In this document: piece after piece, positions 3,270 through 48,859 of the stretch
Layout: every line of letters begins with the position of its first letter
How positions within the stretch are numbered: the first letter of the stretch is position 1
Assembly: GCA_964016885.1 (NCBI GenBank)
Contig: OZ024740.1
Location: 229,152,001 to 229,216,000, forward strand
Direction of reading: 5' to 3'
DNA from: Eledone cirrhosa
Taxonomy: Eukaryota
Length of the DNA stretch: 64,000 bases
Notes under the pieces: model-generated
Seen by the model: only the letters and a program-made list of their open reading frames with translations
Database searches by the model: none
What the model was told of the DNA's origin: nothing
Position numbers and translations under genes: made by a program

Positions 3270-4007
3270 CATACATATTCACAGACATTCATACCTATAT
3301 GTGCTCACATTTCTACACATTCATTTATACTCACACATTTAAAATTATGTCATATTACACACGCGTATGCACAGACACTAACACACACATGCACACACTT
3401 TCACATATATATGCAAACACTTTCACGCACATATTCACATAGATATATATATATACACATATTCAAACATATCTGCACACACATATATTCACACATATAT
3501 GCACACACATTTACACACGTATGGTTTTATAATATGTCACATGATTTGGGTTGGGTGAATATAACGTCTGTAGTAGAAAATGCAGGCTTAGTAATTTTCT
3601 TAGTGTAGTCAGAACTAGAAGTATCAAAGGCTAGGTTTATCAGCTTGCTAAATTGTAAACTGGAATTATATTATTTGGGAGAATTAGATGCATAATTGGA
3701 AGGGGTACACATTGAAAGGCTGGATTCTAATCCAATCCAGGGACTTCACATTTCTTTTGAAGGAATCCCTCCCTGGATGATACCCACGGCTTTCTGTTTG
3801 GTTTTCGTCATATCTCCAATGTAGCCTTACTCACCACGTCTAGCCACTTGTAGGTTGGGGCGGCTATTTAACCCGTTGACTCTGACAAGTTCATCTGCCC
3901 ATTTTAAAGCTCTTTTTGTTTGTGCTGGTGGGGGTTCCAATTAGCTTCACCCCCCACCCCCTCCACCAAACGAAGGTCAGCCTCTTTAGTCAACAACAAC
4001 TAGAACA

Positions 4008-6210
4008 TAAAGCAGGTTGTACTGGGTTACATGGTACCAGTATCAGGCAGAAGCCTGACATGACTATACCAGGATTTGGTGGGAAGAGCTAGTTTAGTCA
4101 CTGACCACTTGACAATAAAGCAGGTTGAACTGGGTTACATGGTACCAGTATCAGGCAGAAGCCTGACATGATTATACCAGGATTTGGTGGGAAGAGCTAG
4201 TTTAGTCACTGACCACTTGACAATAAAGCAGGTTGAACTGGGTTACATGGTACCAGTATCAGGCAGAAGCCTGACATGACTATACCAGGATTTGGTGGGA
4301 AGAGCTAGTTTAGTCACTGACCACTTGACAATAAAGCAGGTTGTACTGGGTTACATGGTACCAGTATCAGGCAGAAGCCTGATATGACTATACCAGGGTT
4401 TGGTGGGAAAAGCTAGTTTAGTCACTGACCACTTGACAACAAAGCAGGTTGTACTGGGTTACATGGTACCAGTATCAGGCAGAAGCCTGACATGACTGTA
4501 CCAGGGTTTGGTGGGAAAAGCTAGTTTAGTCACTGACCACTTGACAATAAAGCAGGTTGTACTGGGTTACATGGTACCAGTATCAGGCAGAAGCCTGACA
4601 TGACTATACCAGGATTTGGTGGGAAGAGCTAGTTTAGTCACTGACCACTTGACAATAAAGCAGGTTGAACTGGGTTACATGGTACCAGTATCAGGCAGAA
4701 GCCTGACATGACTGTACCAGGGTTTGGTGGGAAGAGCTAGTTTAGTCACTGACCACTTGACAATAAAGCAGGTTGAACTGGGTTACATGGTACCAGTATC
4801 AGGCAGAAGCCTGACATGACTGTACCAGGGTTTGGTGGGAAAAGCTAGTTTAGTCACTGACCACTTGACAATAAAGCAGGTTGTACTGGGTTACATGGTA
4901 CCAGTATCAGGCAGAAGCCTGACATGACTATACCAGGGTTTGGTGGGAAAAGCTAGTTTAGTCACTGACCACTTGACAATAAAGCAGGTTGTACTGGGTT
5001 ACATGGTACCAGTATCAGGCAGAAGCCAATAAAGCAGGTTGTACTGGGTTACATGGTACCAGTATCAGGCAGAAGCCTGACATGACTGTACCAGGGTTTG
5101 GTGGGAAAAGCTAGTTTAGTCACTGACCACTTGACAATAAAGCAGGTTGTACTGGGTTACATGGTACCAGTATCAGGCAGAAGCCTGACATGACTATACC
5201 AGGGTTTGGTGGGAAGAGCTAGTTTAGTCACTGACCACTTGACAATAAAGCAGGTTGTACTGGGTTACATGGTACCAGTATCAGGCAGAAGCCTGACATG
5301 ACTATACCAGGATTTGGTGGGAAGAGCTAGTTTAGTCACTGACCACTTGACAATAAAGCAGGTTGAACTGGATTACATGGTACCAGTATCAGGCAGAAGC
5401 CTGACATGACTGTACCAGGGTTTGGTGGGAAGAGCTAGTTTAGTCACTGACCACTTGACAATAAAGCAGGTTGAACTGGGTTACATGGTACCAGTATCAG
5501 GCAGAAGCCTGACATGACTGTACCAGGGTTTGGTGGGAAAAGCTAGTTTAGTCACTGACCACTTGACAATAAAGCAGGTTGTACTGGGTTACATGGTACC
5601 AGTATCAGGCAGAAGCCTGACATGACTATACCAGGGTTTGGTGGGAAAAGCTAGTTTAGTCACTGACCACTTGACAATAAAGCAGGTTGTACTGGGTTAC
5701 ATGGTACCAGTATCAGGCAGAAGCCTGACATGACTATACCAGGGTTTGGTGGGAAGAGCTAGTTTAGTCACTGACCACTTGACAATAAAGCAGGTTGTAC
5801 TGGGTTACATGGTACCAGTATCAGGCAGAAGCCTGACATGACTATACCAGGGTTTGGTGGGAAAAGCTAGTTTAGTCACTGACCACTTGACAATAAAGCA
5901 GGTTGTACTGGGTTACATGGTACCAGTATCAGGCAGAAGCCTGACATGACTATACCAGGGTTTGGTGGGAAGAGCTAGTTTAGTCACTGACCACTTGACA
6001 ATAAAGCAGGTTGTACTGGGTTACATGGTACCAGTATCAGGCAGAAGCCTGACATGACTATACCAGGGTTTGGTGGGAAAAGCTAGTTTAGTCACTGACC
6101 ACTTGACAATAAAGCAGGTTGTACTGGGTTACATGGTACCAGTATCAGGCAGAAGCCTGACATGACTATACCAGGGTTTGGTGGGAAGAGCTAGTTTAGT
6201 CACTGACCAC
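4008..6210. repeat. 108-bp tandem satellite, ~20 near-identical copies
   Basis: gcaggttg recurs at 4012, 4120, 4228 ...; one ~50 bp short unit near 4980-5030. Confidence 0.95.
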
Positions 6211-6783
6211 TCGGCAATGAAGGAGCTAGCTCAGGGCGCTAAATACCCAGGTAGTGACCCAGTTCGTGGTTCATTGCTACTCAGCAAATCACCAACGTTA
6301 AAAATCTATTTCGTGTTGATCCCCGTAGTTGAATGTTTGTCTTGTGGTCTTATATTCGGCACGAGTCAATTGATTATAATTCGTTAACAAACTGTCAAGT
6401 TTAGATCCTATCAAAACAACATCCCACCATCTGTGCTATGATCTGCCCAAACGTACCTCTCTGTTCAGACTTGTCCACGCTGTTAAACCTCTCCCTATCT
6501 CCCTGAAGAAATTAGATTTGATGTTAACGCATTGATGATATGTGGTTCGCTAGAGGCGTTGGAAACATGGGAGAATATGAATCAAGCCCCCCCCCCCCTT
6601 CTCCCCCTCTCTTTATTTCTTCCCCCCCCCCTCTCTCTCTCTATATATATATATATATGCATAAAATTAGAGTTTTATTTCTCGCTCTAGCACAACTGAT
6701 ACATAAATGTGAGTATGCATACGTAGACACACACACACACACACACACACATACATACATACATACATACATACATACATACA

Positions 6784-17579: not shown

Positions 17580-18866
17580 ACCGATACCTGTACTAGGTCT
17601 AAAAACAATTAGTCAATATGAACAACTAATGAGGAACAGATACCTGTACTAGGACCAAATATAATTACTGTATTTCCCGGCGCCGAAGACGCTTCGTCCT
17701 CGAGGACGCACCCTAATTTTGACAACCAAAAATTTGAAAAAAAATAATAAACAACCTTCGACCTCCAGGACGCATGGAAGATTTTAAAGACTTATTTTAG
17801 GAAAAAAGTAGCGTCTTCGACGCTGGGAAACACAGTAGTCAGTATGAACACCTTACGAGGAACGGACACCTGTATAGGTCTAAATACAATTAGTCAATAT
17901 GAACAACTAACGAGGAACGGACACCTGTATAGGTCTAAATACAATTAGTCAATATGAACAACTAACGAGGAACGGACACCTGTATAGGTCTAAATACAAT
18001 TAGTCAATATGAACAACTAACGAGGAACGGACACCTGTATAGGTCTAAATACAATTAGTCAATATGAACACCTAACGAGGAACGGACACCTGTATAGGTC
18101 TAAATACAATTAGTCAATATGAACAACTAACGAGGAACGGACACCTGTATAGGTCTAAATACAATTAGTCAATATGAACAACTAATGAGGAACGGACACC
18201 TGTATAGGTCTAAATACAATTAGTCAATATGAACACCTAACGAGGAAGTGGCACATGTATAGGTCTAAATACAATTAGTCAATATGAACAACTAATGAGG
18301 AAGAGGCACATGTATAGGTCTAAATACAATTAGTCAATATGAACACCTAACGAGGAAGTGGCACATGTATAGGTCTAAATACAATTAGTCAATATGAACA
18401 CCTAACGAGGAAGAGGCACATGTATAGGTCTAAATACAATTAGTCAATATGAACAACTAATGAGGAACGGACACCTGTATAGGTCTAAATACAATTAGTC
18501 AATATGAACACCTAACGAGGAAGTGGCACATGTATAGGTCTAAATACAATTAGTCAATATGAACACCTAACGAGGAAGAGGCACATGTATAGGTCTAAAT
18601 ACAATTAGTCAATATGAACAACTAATGAGGAACGGACACCTGTATAGGTCTAAATACAATTAGTCAATATGAACAACTAATGAGGAACGGACACCTGTAT
18701 AGGTCTAAATACAATTAGTCAATATGAACAACTAATGAGGAACAGGTACCTGTACTAGGTCTAAATACAATTGTTCAATTTGAACAACTAATGAGGAACA
18801 GGTACCTGTAGTAGGACCAAAACAGATACCTGTAGTAGGACCAAATACAATTAATCAATATGAACA
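17580..18866. repeat. 55-bp tandem satellite, ~19 copies
   Basis: gagg recurs at 17857, 17912, 17967 ...; two internal variants (acggacacc and agtggcaca/agaggcaca). Confidence 0.95.
17668..17835. mobile_element. Intact 168-bp Tc2-like MITE with TA TSD
   Basis: TA|ctgtatttcccggcgccgaagacgc ... gcgtcttcgacgctgggaaacacag|TA, inserted at the TA of a satellite unit. Confidence 0.88.
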
Positions 18867-21530: not shown

Positions 21531-21828
21531 CCCACTTGACTCACTTCTGTTTATCTTATCTCCACTTTCCTCACTGATTAATTATAAAATCATACTTTGC
21601 CCGGCTGGTTGACGCCTTATTCCTGTGAATATTAAATATTTTAGGTTACGTAAAAACTGGCTTGCTAATTGCATAGAGGAAATATTGACATAGAAATCCT
21701 AAAAAGGGTCATGGCATGGGTAACGATTCTCCCTCCTTAAACAAACAGCAAAAAAAAAAAATAATAATAATAATAAACTCTCAATTATGACGCATGGTCC
21801 TATCAAACAGAATTGAAGAACCATTACA

Positions 21829-22400
21829 ATTCATGGTTCCTCACTCTGTCAGGTGTCCAACTCTGATCCGGTAGCTGTGAGTAGAGATGGCTCGAAAAGC
21901 CACCCAAATTCGTGGGTCTTCACTCTTTTAGGTGGCTAACGCTGATCCGATAGCTGTGGGTAGGGAGAGGGCTGGAAGAGGGCTGGAAGAGATATATCCC
22001 AACTCGTGGGTCCTTACTCTTCGAAGTGGCCAACTCTGATCCGATAGCTGTGGGTAGGGAGATGGCTGGAAGAGCCATCCCAACCTGTGGGTCCTTACTC
22101 TTTCATGTGGCCAACTCTGATCCGATAGCTGTGGGTAGGGAGATGGCTGGAAGAGACATCCCAGCCTGTGGGTCCTTACTCTTTCATGTGGCTAACTCTG
22201 ATCCGATAGCTGTGGGTAGGGAGATGGCTGGAAGAGACATACCAGCCTGTGGGTCCTCACTCTTGCAAGTGGCCAACTCTGATACGATAGCAATGGGTAG
22301 GGAGGTGGCTGGAAGAGATCTCCCAATTCATGGGTTCTCACTCTTTCAGGTGGCCACCTTTGATCCGATAGCAGTGAGAAGGGAGATGGTTCGTGGAATA
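21829..22400. repeat. 81-bp GC-richer minisatellite, ~7 copies
   Basis: gtggccaactctgatccgatagc recurs at 22026, 22107, 22188 ... Confidence 0.9.
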
Positions 22401-25909: not shown

Positions 25910-25958
25910 GATTCTACAGGACTAGAACTGTTTCATTCTTGAGAAATCATCAGGAATC
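25910..25958 (-). ncRNA. Type I hammerhead with a true stem III
   Basis: Minus strand: gattc CTGATGA t-ttc-tcaa-gaa-t GAAA cag-ttctagtc-ctg TA gaatc; element 25818-25983 in (TA)n. Confidence 0.75.
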
Positions 25959-30608: not shown

Positions 30609-30659
30609 GCTTTCCTGATGATTAAAAAAAAAATGAAACAGTTATAGTCCTATAGAAGC
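30609..30659 (+). ncRNA. Degenerate hammerhead (family of 25910/42986)
   Basis: gctttc CTGATGA ttaaaaaaaaaat GAAA cagttatagtccta TA gaagc; stem II lost. Confidence 0.45.
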
Positions 30660-30939: not shown

Positions 30940-31561
30940 CACACATATATATATTACACATACAGAATGAGGAAAATGCGAAGTTGTAGATATTAAAGTG
31001 TCTTTTATTAATTGAGCTGTTATACATATTTCATATAATTATGTGAGAATGTGTGTATTTATGGATAATGCGTGTGTGTGTGTGTCTGTGTATATGTGTC
31101 TGTAAAGATATATATAGAGATAGATAGATAGAGAAAGAGAGAGAGTGTGAGTGAAAGAGAGAGAGAGAGCGAGCGGTTTGTGAGTGAAAGAAAGAGAGAG
31201 AGAGAGCGGTTTGTCTGTGTGTTTACATACAGAATAGCTGGACACTCACAGTAAAGTGTCCAGTGAAAAACTCGGTACATCTACATATGTACACGTGTGT
31301 GTATTCATATGCATACTAGTATTTCAGTATACATATGTGGATGTACATTTTTAATTTAATTGTTTAAGCGTCAGTCATACAAAAGTGAGTTACAAACGAA
31401 ACGAAATTTAATTTCGTTTCGTTATTTGTTTTTATCGTCTCCGCTGAACCGGTACGTACTCACGCTCTATGCAAATTAGTCTGCCCACTACTAATTTTCA
31501 TAGAAAAAGCATATAACGATATGTGCTTTTACGATTCTCTAGAAAGGCCGGAAGATAGGTA

Positions 31562-31606
31562 AATATTGCTGATGAGATGTAACAACATCGAAACTAGTCC
31601 AATATT
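31562..31606 (+). ncRNA. Canonical minimal type I hammerhead (GUC site)
   Basis: aatattg CTGATGA gatgt-aaca-acatc GAAA ctag TC caatatt; 7-bp stem I, 5-bp stem II, palindromic loop 3. Confidence 0.9.
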
Positions 31607-32027
31607 CCTTGTCTGGCTTTCTGGAGAATAGAGGAAAGGTGTTTCCTCGAAAACCAGTATGACTCTAAAAACCGGTTTGTCTGTGTGTTTACATACAGAA
31701 TAGCTGGACACTCACAGTAAAGTGTCCAGTGAAAAACTCGGTACATCTACATATGTACACGTGTGTGTATTCATATGCATACTAGTATTTCAGTATACAT
31801 ATGTGGATGTACATTTTTAATTTAATTGTTTAAGCGTCAGTCATACAAAAGTGAGTTACAAACGAAACGAAATTTAATTTCGTTTCGTTATTTGTTTTTA
31901 TCGTCTCCGCTGAACCGGTACGTACTCACGCTCTATGCAAATTAGTCTGCCCACTACTAATTTTCATAGAAAAAGCATATAACGATATGTGCTTTTACGA
32001 TTCTCTAGAAAGGCCGGAAGATAGGTA

Positions 32028-32072
32028 AATATTGCTGATGAGATGTAACAACATCGAAACTAGTCCAATATT
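32028..32072 (+). ncRNA. Canonical minimal type I hammerhead (second copy)
   Basis: Identical to 31562-31606. Confidence 0.9.
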
Positions 32073-32360
32073 CCTTGTCTGGCTTTCTGGAGAATAGAGG
32101 AAAGGTGTTTCCTCGAAAACCAGTATGACTCTAAAAACCGGTTTGTCTGTGTGTTTACATACAGAATAGCTGGACACTCACAGTAAAGTGTCCAGTGAAA
32201 AACTCGGTACATCTACATATGTACACGTGTGTGTATTCATATGCATACTAGTATTTCAGTATACATATGTGGATGTACATTTTTAATTTAATTGTTTAAG
32301 CGTCAGTCATACAAAAGTGAGTTACAAACGAAACGAAATTTAATTTCGTTTCGTTATTTG

Positions 32361-32454
<94 letters not shown>

Positions 32455-32458
<4 letters not shown>

Positions 32459-32760
32459 CGTTTCTGAATTTGTTTAGCAAGATTCTTTATCTGAAAACGT
32501 GTGTTGAAACCGATATTGTTATACTTTGGGAGAGTCCTGTTGCCAATAAGAAACACACGCACCAGTTGCTTTCACTTCAATTTATTATAAATTAAATTAT
32601 AAATTTAAAAATTTATAAAATTTCGGTTGGTTGGTTGGTTCCACACCGGATGGTTGTTCATATATTATCAAAGTTCTTTCGTCACACATTCTGTGACCTC
32701 TTTAGTGACTGGGGATTCTTTTTCTTTGTATTGTGCCTCTCCTTTGTTCTGTCCGTGACA
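32455..32760 (-). mobile_element. PLE pLTR-related fragment with a core-mutated HHR (32667-32709)
   Basis: 3' end resembles 24710-24790; minus strand gtca CTAAAGA g-gtcaca-gaatg-tgtgac GAAA gaac TT tgat. Confidence 0.65.
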
Positions 32761-32896
32761 ATAAATACTTAACTCTCAATAGGTCTCAGTCACACACCTT
32801 TCCTATCAACGAACTGGCGGTAAATATCTATCAATTATTTGATGAAATAAAAGGGACAGATAAGACCCCGAAAAACTTTGTCGGAATAAACAAAAA

Positions 32897-33081
32897 TAAT
32901 TGTTTCTACTTTTGGCACAAGGCCAGCAATTACCCCAGTGTATTACTGGTACTTTATCTTATCGACCCTGTAACGATGAAAGGCAAAGTTAACCTCGGCG
33001 GGATTTGAACTCAGACCACAAAGGGCCGTAACTCTTTGCTGCAAAGCATGGCGTCCGACCCTCTACCGATACTGCCAATCC
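32897..33081 (-). mobile_element. SINE family A
   Basis: Full body; short aaaataat TSD. Confidence 0.92.
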
Positions 33082-33838
33082 AAAAATAATAACAGTTGAA
33101 AACTTTACTAAGAGCATGGGTGCTGAACTTTTGGTATGCACACCCAAGGTCGCTTATGAAAACATTTTATTGGCAAGCGGCAGATATATTTTTTGTTGGT
33201 GGTTTTATAAAATAGAAATCTACAAATTCCTCCTTCATAAAATACTTAAAAAGGATGACAAAAAGAAAAAATACGGATTATACGATGTTCATTATTAGAA
33301 GGGGACCATATGGTCAAGGCGATTATATTTATATTAGAGTTTACTGGTATTACTTTTCATTAAAATTTTGTCAACAAAGACTTATTTAAGATCGTCTTTA
33401 AATATTTTAAAAGCAGTGAATTTGTGAAGCCGTTTCTTGAAGCAACCGTCACTAATTACACTTCATATATATACTGTATATATTAATACATGGAGTTAGT
33501 TGAAATGTCAATGAACTATTAGTTTAATTGCCATTGTGACCAATGTATGTATTCTTCATTATCATTTAATCATGTAAGACCTGCAAACATTAAGACAAGG
33601 AGATATATGCTATGGTTTCAAAGACTATGAAACAAATAGTTGCTTGAAAGCTCAACTAATAACATGTATTAAAATATACGGGTTTACATATCGAGGACTC
33701 ATTCGATCCTAATCATCGAGCAAACTGGCATCACACATTTAATACCACCTTAATGCACGAAATTGTATGCCAGCAAAGTGGCTGGCCAGGTAAAGATGCA
33801 GCTGGCTGTTCGTCTTTTGTGACTGTATTTCTCCTGAT

Positions 33839-36172: not shown

Positions 36173-36211
36173 TGAACAAGTACTTTCATGCTTTCGCAAT
36201 CTTCAGGTTCA
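36173..36211 (-). ncRNA. Minimal hammerhead (mirror copy)
   Basis: Reverse complement of 36299-36337. Confidence 0.75.
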
Positions 36212-38128: not shown

Positions 38129-38565
38129 GGAATTAGCTCAATGCATAGCTGTATACATCTAAATCTAAAGAAATTTCGGTATGTTCATCCATAAACATAC
38201 CGTATTTCTTTAGAAATACGAAATTTCAATACATATCTCTCTACAACTATGCATGAAGCTAATTCCTAATTCTCTTCTATTATAAGTTGAACCAACTTAT
38301 GCAGCTTCATATGCAAATGAGATAGATCACCTCATTTACACAGACGAGAAAACCATATATTCTCGCCTGTTTTCAAGCCAAGGAGTTGCAAGTCTGGGAG
38401 GGATCGTCCTGATGAGGACAAGTTACGTTCGAAATTCATTGACGATTGTCCCCTTTGCTTCTGCTGGACACCACCAGAGGGCGATAGACCCGGTGTTTTG
38501 CATAACTCCGGCTTTCTAAATGTTTATCCATAAACATACCGTATTTCTTTAGAAATACGAAATTT

Positions 38566-44754: not shown

Positions 44755-47700
44755 CACATCACACCACGCCATACACACCACACCACACACTACACACCAC
44801 ACCACGCCACACACCACACACAACACACCACTCACATCACACGACACACTACACACCACACACATCACACGACACACTACACACCACGCCATACACTACA
44901 CACCACGCCATACCACGCCACACACTACACATCACACAACACACTGCACACCACGCCACACACTCACTACACACCACACCACACACTACACACCACACCA
45001 CGCCACACACTACACACCACGCCACACACTCCACACCACACCACACACTACACACGACGCCACACACTACACATCACACCACACATTCCACATCACGCCA
45101 CACACAACACACCACGCCACACACTACACACCACACCAGACCACGCCACACACTACACACCACACCACGCCACACACTCCACACACTACACATCACACCA
45201 CACACTCCACATCACGCCACACACTACACACCACGCAACACACTACATACCACGCCACACACTACATACCACGCCACACCAAACCACACACTACACACCA
45301 CGCCACACACTACACACCACGCCACACACTATACGCCACGCCACACACACTACACACCACGCCACACACTACACATCACACCATACACTACAAACAACGC
45401 CACACACTACACACCACGCCACACACTACACACCACGCCACACACTACACATCACACCACACACTACACACACCACACACTACACATCACGCCACACACT
45501 ACACACCACGCCACACACTACACATCACACCACACACTACACACACCACACACTACACACCACGCCACACACTACACACCACGCCACACACTACACATCA
45601 CACCACACACTACACACCACGCCACACACTACACACCACATCACGCCACACACTACACATCACGCCACACACTACACACCACGCCACACACTACACGCCA
45701 CGCCACACACTACACACACCACACACTACACATCACGCCACACACTACACACCACGCCACACACTACACATCACATCACACACTACACACCACGCCACAC
45801 ACTACACACCACGCCACACACTACACATCACACCACACACTACACACACTATACATTACACCACACACTACACACCACGCCACACACTACACATCACGCC
45901 ACACTACACACCACGCCACACACTACACACACTACACATCACGCCACACACTACACACCACGCCACACACTACACATCACGCCACACTACACACCACGCC
46001 ACACACTACACGCCACGCCACACACTACACACACCACACACTACACATCACGCCACACACTACACAGCACGCCACACACTACACATCACACACACACTAC
46101 ACACCACGCCACACACTACACATCACGCCACACTACACACCACACCACATACTACACACACCACACACTACACATCACGCCACACACTACACACCACGCC
46201 ACACACTACACATCACGCCACACACTACACACACTACACATTACACCACACACTACACACCACGCCACACACTACACACCACGCCACACACTACACATCA
46301 CGCCACACTACACACCACACCACATACTACACACACCACACACTACACATCACGCCACACACTACACACCACGCCACACACTACACATCACGCCACACAC
46401 TACACACATCACACCACACACATCACACGACACACTACACACCACACACATCACACGACACACTACACACCACGCCATACACTACACACCACGCCATACC
46501 ACGCCACACACTACACATCACACAACACACTGCACACCACGCCACACACTCACTACACACCACACCACACACTACACACCACACCACGCCACACACTACA
46601 CACCACGCCACACACTACACACCACACCACACACTACACACCACGCCACACACTACACATCACACCACACATTCCACATCACGCCACACACAACACACCA
46701 CGCCACACACTACACACCACACCAGACCACGCCACACACTACACACCACACCACGCCACACACTCCACACACTACACATCACACCACACACTCCACATCA
46801 CGCCACACACTACACACCACGCAACACACTACATACCACGCCACACACTACATACCACGCCACACCAAACCACACACTACACACCACGCCACACACTACA
46901 CACCACGCCACACACTATACGCCACGCCACACACACTACACACCACGCCACACACTACACATCACACCATACACTACAAACAACGCCACACACTACACAC
47001 CACGCCACACACTACACACCACGCCACACACTACACATCACACCACACACTACACACACCACACACTACACATCACGCCACACACTACACACCACGCCAC
47101 ACACTACACATCACACCACACACTACACACACCACACACTACACACCACGCCACACACTACGCACCACGCCACACACTACACATCACACCACACACTACA
47201 CACCACGCCACACACTACACACCACATCACGCCACACACTACACATCACGCCACACACTACACACCACGCCACACACTACACGCCACGCCACACACTACA
47301 CACACCACACACTACACATCACGCCACACACTACACACCACGCCACACACTACACATCACACCACACACTACACACCACGCCACACACTACACACCACGC
47401 CACACACTACACATCACACCACACACTACACACACTATACATTACACCACACACTACACACCACGCCACACACTACACATCACGCCACACTACACACCAC
47501 GCCACACACTACACACACTATACATTACACCACACACTACACACCACGCCACACACTACACATCACGCCACACTACACACCACGCCACACACTACACGCC
47601 ACGCCACACACTACACACACCACACACTACACATCACGCCACACACTACACAGCACGCCACACACTACACATCACACACACACTACACACCACGCCACAC

Positions 47701-48790
47701 ACTACACATCACGCCACACTACACACCACACCACATACTACACACACCACACACTACACATCACGCCACACACTACACACCACGCCACACACTACACATC
47801 ACGCCACACACTACACACACTACACATTACACCACACACTACACACCACGCCACACACTACACATCACGCCACACACTACACACCACGCCACACACTACA
47901 CATCACGCCACACTACACACCACACCACATACTACACACACCACACACTACACATCACGCCACACACTACACACCATGCCACACACTACACATCACGCCA
48001 CACACTACACACCACGCCACACACTACTATCACGCCACACACTACACACCACGCCACACACTACACATCACGCCACACACTACACACACTACACATTACA
48101 ACACACACTACACACCACGCCACACACTACACATCACGCCACACACTACACACCACGCCACACACTACACATCACACACACACTACACAGCACGCCACAC
48201 ACTACACATCACACACACACTACACACCACGCCACACACTACACATCACGCCACACTACACACCACACCACATACTACACACACCACACACTACACATCA
48301 CGCCACACACTACACACCACGCCACACACTACACATCACGCCACACACTACACACCACGCCACACGCTACACATCACGCCACACACTACACACACTACAC
48401 ATTACACCACACACTACACACCACGCCACACACTACACATCACGCCACACACTACACACCACGCCACACACTACACATCACACACACACTACACACCACG
48501 CCACACACTACACATCACGCCACACACTACACACACTACACATTACACCACACACTACACACCACGCCACACACTACACATCACGCCACACACTACACAC
48601 CACGCCACACACTACACGCCACGCCACACACTACACATCACGCCATACACTACACACCACGCCACACACTACACATCACACACACACTACACACCACGCC
48701 ACACACTACACATCACGCCACACACTACACACCACGCCACACACTACACGCCACGCCACACACTACACGCCACGCCACACACTACACACC
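44755..48790. repeat. CA-rich 19-bp-unit satellite with a 1586-bp higher-order duplication
   Basis: cacgccacacactacacac units; rare variant ccaga at 45136 and 46722. Confidence 0.9.
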
Positions 48791-48859
48791 ATCGTATCCA
48801 ACATGCCACATCACCACACACCACACCAGACACATCATAGCAGTAAACATCACACACTA

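Follow-up and report, generated by a model that had tools for sequence, protein, structure and literature searches.

The stretch of the Eledone cirrhosa genome analyzed here, 64,000 nt long and referred to below as the window, contains a 466-bp unit that is repeated in tandem and carries predicted hammerhead ribozymes. Two questions are raised by such a locus: to which class of elements does the repeat belong, and how did it come to be written into the DNA as a multimer? The tandem array was delimited by TRF at 31207-32367, with a period of 466, 2.5 copies (2.49 units) and a 100% match, and the period-466 self-match runs through it for 695 nt without a break; the GC content is 36%, and stop-to-stop frames reach at most 60 aa on either strand. 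The first-pass annotation, which had described about 2.5 identical 466-bp units without a credible ORF, is borne out by these values, and the three hairpins that it named sit at the expected places. The end of the array has to be moved from 32365 to 32367, because the last AT is common to the array and to (TA)n; the (TA)n in which the array was said to end does adjoin it but is, as will be seen, a target and not a part of the element. The features of the insertion are collected in the table, with units numbered so that position 1 is the base after the predicted hammerhead cut.

Features of the 466-bp tandem insertion (positions in the window)
Feature	Position	Strand	Remarks
Whole insertion	31207..32367	+	single-armed; unit positions 74-466, 1-466, 1-302
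5'-junction duplication, 33 bp	31174..31206	+	first 8 nt of the element, then a copy of the GA-rich flank
Type I hammerhead 1	31551..31622	+	core 31569-31599; predicted cut after C31599
Type I hammerhead 2	32017..32088	+	predicted cut after C32065
Predicted monomer	31600..32065	+	delimited by the two predicted cuts; non-coding, strongly folded
Hairpin named in the first-pass annotation	31704..31729; also at 31238, 32170	+	other subfamilies differ in both partners of the inner pairs
Stem-loop just upstream of the hammerhead	31934..31968; also 31468-31502	+	common to the sister family
Penelope-type tail	32294..32367	+	unit 229/234-302, ~70-75 nt; distal family-wide 3' end at 32367
13-bp hairpin within the tail	32327..32355; also 31395-31423, 31861-31889	+	
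(TA)n microsatellite	32365-32456	.	insertion target, outside the element

The folding energy of the predicted monomer is -158.3 kcal/mol, a value equaled by 0 of 100 shuffles (z -9.12), and when 15 whole units are compared, both partners differ in 5 of 144 predicted pairs. The arms of the stem-loop upstream of each hammerhead resemble the ATGCAAAT octamer, and this stem-loop is a candidate internal promoter; at one locus (L191) it is mutated in every unit. Two very abundant short repeats lie to the right of the array (32441-32755 and 32885-33085); the second has many copies in the window, and a copy of the first is adjoined by the 466-bp insertion L046. Other tandem arrays, with units of 108, 55, 81 and 19 bp, occur at 4007-6222, 17836-18815, 21827-22393 and 44760-48826. 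Matches of the region to Rfam microRNA and snoRNA models were rejected, being far under the gathering scores and mostly over microsatellites.

Hammerheads with GUC sites ending at 31599 and 32065 had been predicted, and the CUGAUGA...GAAACUAGUC motif indeed terminates at both positions. Both are matched by the Rfam model Hammerhead_HH9 (RF02275) with E 2.3e-7 and 38.9 bits, under the gathering threshold of 52 bits, so the ribozyme resembles this class in its working without being filed under it. The first hammerhead has a stem I of 7 bp with an extension, a stem II of 5 bp with an AACA loop and a 2-bp stem III within a palindrome. There are only two hammerheads in the window array because the third, partial unit stops at position 302. 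When 14 distinct variants from the 466-bp family and from a 67-75% identical sister family are compared, the catalytic core and the palindromic ACUAGU are invariant except at one variable core position, and covariation is seen in stems I and II. Six of 16 pairs change on both sides; the observed pairing, the cell count and the covariation score are each reached by 0 of 500 shuffles and two pair-type counts by 72 and 464 of 500, and since the variants fall into two related groups, this covariation is to be read as support and not as a probability. A dimeric hammerhead fold, suggested earlier on account of the two CUAG loops, is possible given the invariant palindrome, which co-folds at -6.2 kcal/mol, although a dimer is not thereby demonstrated. 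Across the family, GUC is the minority state at the cut site: GUU is present in 95 of 104 sampled units, and a GUC-specific pattern finds 1,731 matches against 7,803 for the core pattern, the two patterns being slightly different. Cleavage at GUU is slower than at GUC. GUU does appear in the list of cleavable triplets given in PMC3138052.

An exact 31-nt core pattern has 7,803 matches in the 3.0-Gb assembly (3,986 forward and 3,817 reverse), and the reversed-pattern control has none genome-wide; a DNA search of the genome returned 324 matches from 39 of 335 candidates scored. Together with the covarying hammerhead stems, these copies agree with the earlier view of a young, dispersed non-LTR retrozyme-type element, and the alternative of a single-locus sequence or an assembly duplication is answered by their dispersal over both strands and by the unit-level variants that the assembly resolves. 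The number 7,803 is an undercount of the family, since the pattern misses copies such as L103:6437-6656, a miniature two-armed insertion without a hammerhead (61-228 on the minus strand, 249-302 on the plus strand) which has one end of each of the kinds described below. The repeat was also found in public runs of three studies. In run X4, which has another organism code and study, a single 495-nt contig covers 31436-31931 with ~98% identity, amounting to one unit, with a gap of 1 nt, and 30 nt more, and the abundant neighboring repeat is uncovered. Such a contig fits a closed loop in a 31-mer assembly graph, but a tandem would look alike, and we therefore do not count it as evidence of a circle.

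The architecture of the insertions was read in two samples. The position-ordered sample consists of the first 100 of the 7,803 core matches, which lie on C1 between 0 and 47 Mb and represent 25 places with 26 insertions (one edge-cut copy was excluded); it requires an intact core and is unbiased in identity. The top-identity sample consists of 32 stretches around the best matches, with a bias toward young copies that resemble the one in the window. In the position-ordered sample, 21 of the 26 insertions are two-armed and 5 are single-armed. In a two-armed insertion, the left array is on the minus strand and the right array on the plus strand, and the two meet by their 5' ends; the outer ends of the insertion are found at unit position 227-233 or 299-303, mostly within (TA)n. 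Nineteen of the 21 have one end of each kind and two have one odd end (L182 and the second insertion of L173). The top-identity sample comprises 22 insertions with one end of each kind, one with an odd end (L031), one truncated where a contig stops (L048) and eight with a single arm, among them L037 with odd ends. Thus, all 41 canonical two-armed loci of the two samples follow the one-of-each rule (p ~5e-13 if the ends were independent), and none of the 41 has two ends of the same kind. In 7 of the 41 the second arm, read by eye from the flanks, is only 8-15 nt long and still ends exactly at the other site. Dispersed copies, for which the first-pass annotation had proposed to look, are indeed seen, but in place of the variable start points named there, the 3' ends are fixed at two unit positions. 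Non-canonical ends are present at L037:4513-5337, L182 and L173:7711-8272; the last of these sits in (CAT)n, and the right end of L192 lies in (ATT)n/(GTT)n and not in (TA)n.

Since most outer ends are in (TA)n, and at fixed unit positions, (TA)n is the insertion target and not the tail of the element. The retrozyme criterion of a target duplication longer than 4 bp can be read at L045, the one clear non-microsatellite site, where the duplication is 10-11 bp; at nearly all other sites it is unreadable because the sites are microsatellites. The inner junctions are scattered. Thirteen of 21 are flush with an overlap of 0-3 nt, which in 7 of these 13 is 3 nt (p 4e-6), and the remaining 8 carry inserts of 2-18 nt, a combination that points to microhomology-type end joining. 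In neither sample do two loci have an inner junction in common, nor is any locus three-armed. The two arms reach 15 and 31 units, the latter in L179/180. By these standards the window copy is an atypical, minority case: a single arm, primed at 302, with its 5' end joined to the flank. It has neither a second arm nor a target-site duplication; the proximal family-wide 3' end (32293-32298) is unused, and reverse transcription presumably started at 32367. The 33-bp duplication at its 5' junction is probably a repair scar. The tail sequence itself is almost invariant between subfamilies.

Are the two arms of an insertion copies of the same RNA? In 16 loci, the arms of one locus differ by a median of 0.44% against 3.1% between loci, and the partner arm is closer than any arm of another locus in 11 of the 16, the weakest cases being L185 and L181. 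In L191, all 18 full units are identical over both arms and have variants absent from the other sampled loci, in L032 all 14 full units are identical across both arms, and C334T is present in 19 of 19 units of L048. Inner 5' ends are spread uniformly round the unit (n=75, Rayleigh p 0.70), a single one lying no more than 8 nt from the cut site; 71 of 82 arms exceed the length that a cut linear monomer could template; and in 342 of 343 units the 10 nt of the head-to-tail joint are as expected or differ by one substituted base. From the overlong arms, the evenly spread 5' ends and the exact joints it follows that the cut linear monomer was not the template, which leaves a circle or a long uncut multimer. 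Because loci differ by fixed variants while their long arms are uniform, amplification from one unit is needed, and linear copying should be unable to lengthen an array; a circular template is favored on these grounds. The earlier proposal that the multimer reflects rolling reverse transcription of a circle thus gains from the identical long arms, but other routes to a multimer exist.

Traces of such routes may be seen in the data. In L035, a marked unit is present in both arms in different register, whereas in L060 and L061 repeating variants are limited to one arm, which points to later expansion of the arms at the DNA level. Mixed arrays would be expected from such expansion after insertion or from the copying of mixed multimers. 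The lengths of the two arms are uncorrelated within either sample (rho -0.03, n=15, in the position-ordered one); a pooled rho of 0.40 (p 0.019) was rejected because it mixes two differently chosen samples.

What machinery could have made such insertions? The genome contains many elements with RT and GIY-YIG, of several families (150 of 10,596 GIY-YIG candidates were scored), which by their motifs are presumably Poseidon-like and Neptune-like Penelope-like elements (PLEs); one family has many uninterrupted frames of 900-905 aa. In 8 of 8 two-armed loci that show both ends, out of 13 stretches, this autonomous RT+GIY-YIG family carries a ~40-nt tail at one end only, and it also forms partial tandems of 3-kb units (L231/L232). 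Its tailed arm is on the left in all 8 two-armed loci (L229-L237), possibly by chance, compared with 20 of 41 for the retrozyme. The HH9 model (58 of ~177,000 genome candidates were scored) brought up mainly a 316-bp repeat family, which was read at 30 loci that overlap in part. The one-of-each rule is obeyed in 10 of 10 of its two-armed places that show canonical ends; L128, whose ends are odd, and the tangled L140 do not enter this count. The footprint is shared by the retrozyme, the autonomous PLE and the 316-bp family, and the 466-bp unit is therefore a non-LTR retrozyme behaving as a non-autonomous PLE. The 316-bp family (L113-L142) is otherwise unrelated, with a hammerhead-like core variant, UUGAUAA for CUGAUGA, and fixed ends ~26 nt apart; on C2 (e.g., G000:C2:207686000-207723000) it forms a long array with a repeated 184-bp insert.

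Against the Penelope assignment stands the fact that an autonomous PLE with a homologous terminal repeat was not found in the loci examined. Homology of the 466-bp unit to an autonomous PLE terminal repeat was absent from 50 GIY-YIG loci and, for one PLE family, from 30 loci; 25 loci had no PLE frame beside hammerheads of the sister family; beyond inserted copies of the 466-bp family and its sister, GIY-YIG loci, long-ORF loci and one PLE family had no homology to the unit; and the 64-kb window has no PLE protein match. Weak matches behind two PLE ORFs (E 0.14-0.32) were rejected as partners. A relaxed hammerhead pattern gave 249 matches, and the 100 of these that were listed resemble sister-family variants. 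In Xenopus, too, 33 of 57 retrozyme families are without a database match (bioRxiv 10.64898/2026.07.22.740005). The sister family (L103:8078-10000; also L104, L087, L060, L035, L051, L127 and L188) has a unit of ~480-510 bp with an internal (TA)n and a GUA triplet, and is two-armed too; in L051 the 466-bp family is inserted into this internal (TA)n. Other traces of hammerheads occur in the window. A head-to-head pair of minimal hammerheads at 36206 (-) and 36304 (+), identical to one that follows the ORF in an RT+GIY-YIG family (L096, L100, L108), is likely a short two-armed PLE remnant. A minimal-hammerhead-like motif at 30615, 36848, 38901 and 42992 (+) and at 25953 (-) is also present near PLE ORFs in L095, L098, L102 and L109, and hammerhead-like cores of other families lie at 38409 (+), which has the best stems, 23814 (+), 41919 (-) and 37933 (-).

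The family has much in common with the metazoan non-LTR retrozymes of coral, mussel and axolotl (PMC7229834; Li et al., bioRxiv 10.64898/2026.07.22.740005): non-coding tandem units, a type I hammerhead with a short palindromic stem III, a GC content below 50%, copies in the thousands, and PLEs in the same genome; where those retrozymes have a visible target duplication it is long, and so is the one that can be read here, at L045. The unit of 466 bp is just above the 150-450 bp, or 170-400 nt, of the first report and inside the 51-972 bp of the second; inverted two-armed insertions, fixed internal 3' ends and tails are undescribed in the main texts of both. The plant LTR retrozyme, which has a type III hammerhead, two LTRs and a 4-bp duplication, was rejected as a class in view of the type I topology, the tandem units and the absence of an LTR pair. 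With endonuclease-bearing PLEs (Poseidon, Neptune, Naiad), whose insertions often have a head-to-head inverted 5'-truncated copy, a 30-40-bp tail at one end and a preference for (TA)n (PMC8557442, PMC3846280), the family shares these three features as well as a target duplication where one can be read (8-10 bp in PLEs, 10-11 bp at L045), a hammerhead upstream of the 3' end and two internal starts of reverse transcription (PMC8557442, PMC3846280, PMC11167929). In contrast to PLEs, it has no ORF, both of its arms are tandem, its hammerhead is full-length and not minimal, and its tail of 70-75 nt exceeds the published 30-40 nt, which also counts against the assignment. Non-autonomous Chlamys elements such as MRC1 are likewise protein-free PLE passengers with multicopy head-to-tail insertions; they generally share 3' sequence with an autonomous family, their clade is reported to be without canonical hammerheads, and two-armed arrays are undescribed in the account given in PMC8557442.

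A further parallel is offered by the twin priming of L1. In L1 twin priming, two DNA ends prime on one RNA, one on the poly(A) tail and the other at a variable internal site, and the inverted 5' segment is joined by microhomology. The 466-bp family resembles this in its two ends on one RNA, its inverted segment and its microhomology join; unlike in L1, its start sites are both fixed and internal, with 70-75 nt between them, and each of the products may be a multimer.

We consider twin priming by a PLE very likely and, within it, a circular template probable. Taken together, the reading in which a PLE protein cuts (TA)n and reverse transcription is primed from both DNA ends on a single, probably circular, RNA is the one to which we lean on balance. 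The arrays would be transcribed, cut by the hammerhead and ligated into circles of ~466 nt. A PLE protein, predicted to be a dimer, would bind the tail region and cut both strands of AT-rich DNA, a step that we infer from the footprint and from published in vitro work, in which the purified anole PLE, a predicted dimer, cut and extended both strands at AT-rich DNA and started at two internal RNA sites bounding the tail (PMC11167929). One DNA end would start at unit position ~228-233 and the other at ~302, as in the genomic pattern, and each reverse transcriptase may circle the template from 0 to more than 10 turns. The two arms, which in the genome meet by their 5' ends at scattered points, would then be joined by microhomology-type end joining. 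A circular template for reverse transcription beyond one unit has been proposed before, and pairs of hammerheads on opposite strands are reported in schistosomes (PMC4209133, PMC7761336). Somewhat less probable, but quite possible, is a dimeric PLE protein on a single circular ribozyme RNA, with two starts 70 nt apart, one for each (TA)n end. If this were true, two enzymes would chase each other round the circle and their products would be joined head-to-head, one reaction would explain the tandem arrays of retrozymes, the Penelope tail and the inverted structure, and a small circular RNA cargo would be written into DNA as two multimers.

The most serious alternative, though we think it rather unlikely, retains PLE twin priming at the two fixed sites but takes as the template a long uncut read-through transcript of the parent array, with unequal exchange in a small number of master loci as the source of the uniform long arrays, and with circles, if made, as a by-product. 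The prevalence of GUU speaks for it and against the circle, as does the anole PLE, which in vitro took uncut RNA and for which the hammerhead was dispensable (PMC11167929); 8 of 9 Xenopus retrozyme dimers did not cleave (bioRxiv 10.64898/2026.07.22.740005), which also weighs against the circle. An uncut template would further accommodate the mixed arrays, including the out-of-register marked units of L035, the one-arm higher-order repeats of L060, L061, L050 and L179/180, and the partial tandems of the autonomous element. However, a linear copy cannot lengthen an array, and loci that differ by 3.1% with uniform long arms (L191, L193, L048) would demand repeated single-unit bottlenecks followed by amplification. 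Neither a shared inner junction nor a three-armed locus is present in the two samples, and the hammerhead has been kept, as its covariation indicates.

Alternatively, the inverted arm could be a fold-back product, made by self-priming on the antisense RNA or cDNA. Self-priming was proposed for head-to-head junctions of rotifer PLEs (PMC3846280), the arms do share a haplotype, and L197 has a palindromic center (208/208). This scenario is largely refuted and must be considered improbable, as at nearly all loci the inner ends of the two arms are at unrelated unit positions, the two outer ends have separate fixed sites and separate junctions with the target, the arm lengths are uncorrelated in the position-ordered set, and second arms of 8-15 nt terminate at the other site all the same. 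Still less credible is a LINE-type RT that copies cut linear monomers and builds the tandem by jumping between templates. Template jumps are established for R2-type RTs and a few internal jumps are seen here (L031, L034, L042), but the 3' ends are internal (228-233, 302) and not at the cut site, where the 5' ends do not pile up either, the joints are exact in all but one unit, the arrays show no mixing of subfamilies although these differ by up to 10%, and the footprint is the same as that of the genome's own PLEs. Ordinary satellite DNA or an assembly duplication with an incidental hammerhead, for which the identical window units and some long arrays with the look of satellites expanded as DNA (31 units in L179/180) could be cited, is the least probable reading and is refuted for the family by the core copies dispersed on both strands with no match of the reversed control, the fixed ends, target preference and a target duplication, the unit-level variants resolved by the assembly, the occurrence in public runs of three studies, and the hammerhead covariation, which on three of five measures was reached by 0 of 500 shuffles.

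The class of the element is known; the two-armed architecture and the evidence for a common template of the two arms are new. No description of two-armed retrozyme arrays, of a strict one-of-each rule or of same-template arms was found in the literature searched, the supplements of which could hold examples. That retrozymes are non-autonomous PLEs has been argued from co-occurrence and phylogeny (bioRxiv 10.64898/2026.07.22.740005), and the mobilization of animal retrozymes by PLEs has so far rested on co-occurrence and sequence kinship, while the formation of the inverted one-tailed insertions of Penelope has been called open (PMC8557442, PMC3846280, PMC11167929). In the present case, the complete Penelope footprint is found, under a strict one-of-each rule, in a ribozyme repeat that encodes no protein, and the two arms of the repeat go back to one template, so that an undescribed insertion architecture ties a retrozyme to the Penelope machinery. 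This architecture makes the mechanism of integration directly testable in an existing purified PLE system with two fixed start sites and two DNA ends, in which circular RNA can be compared with linear RNA.
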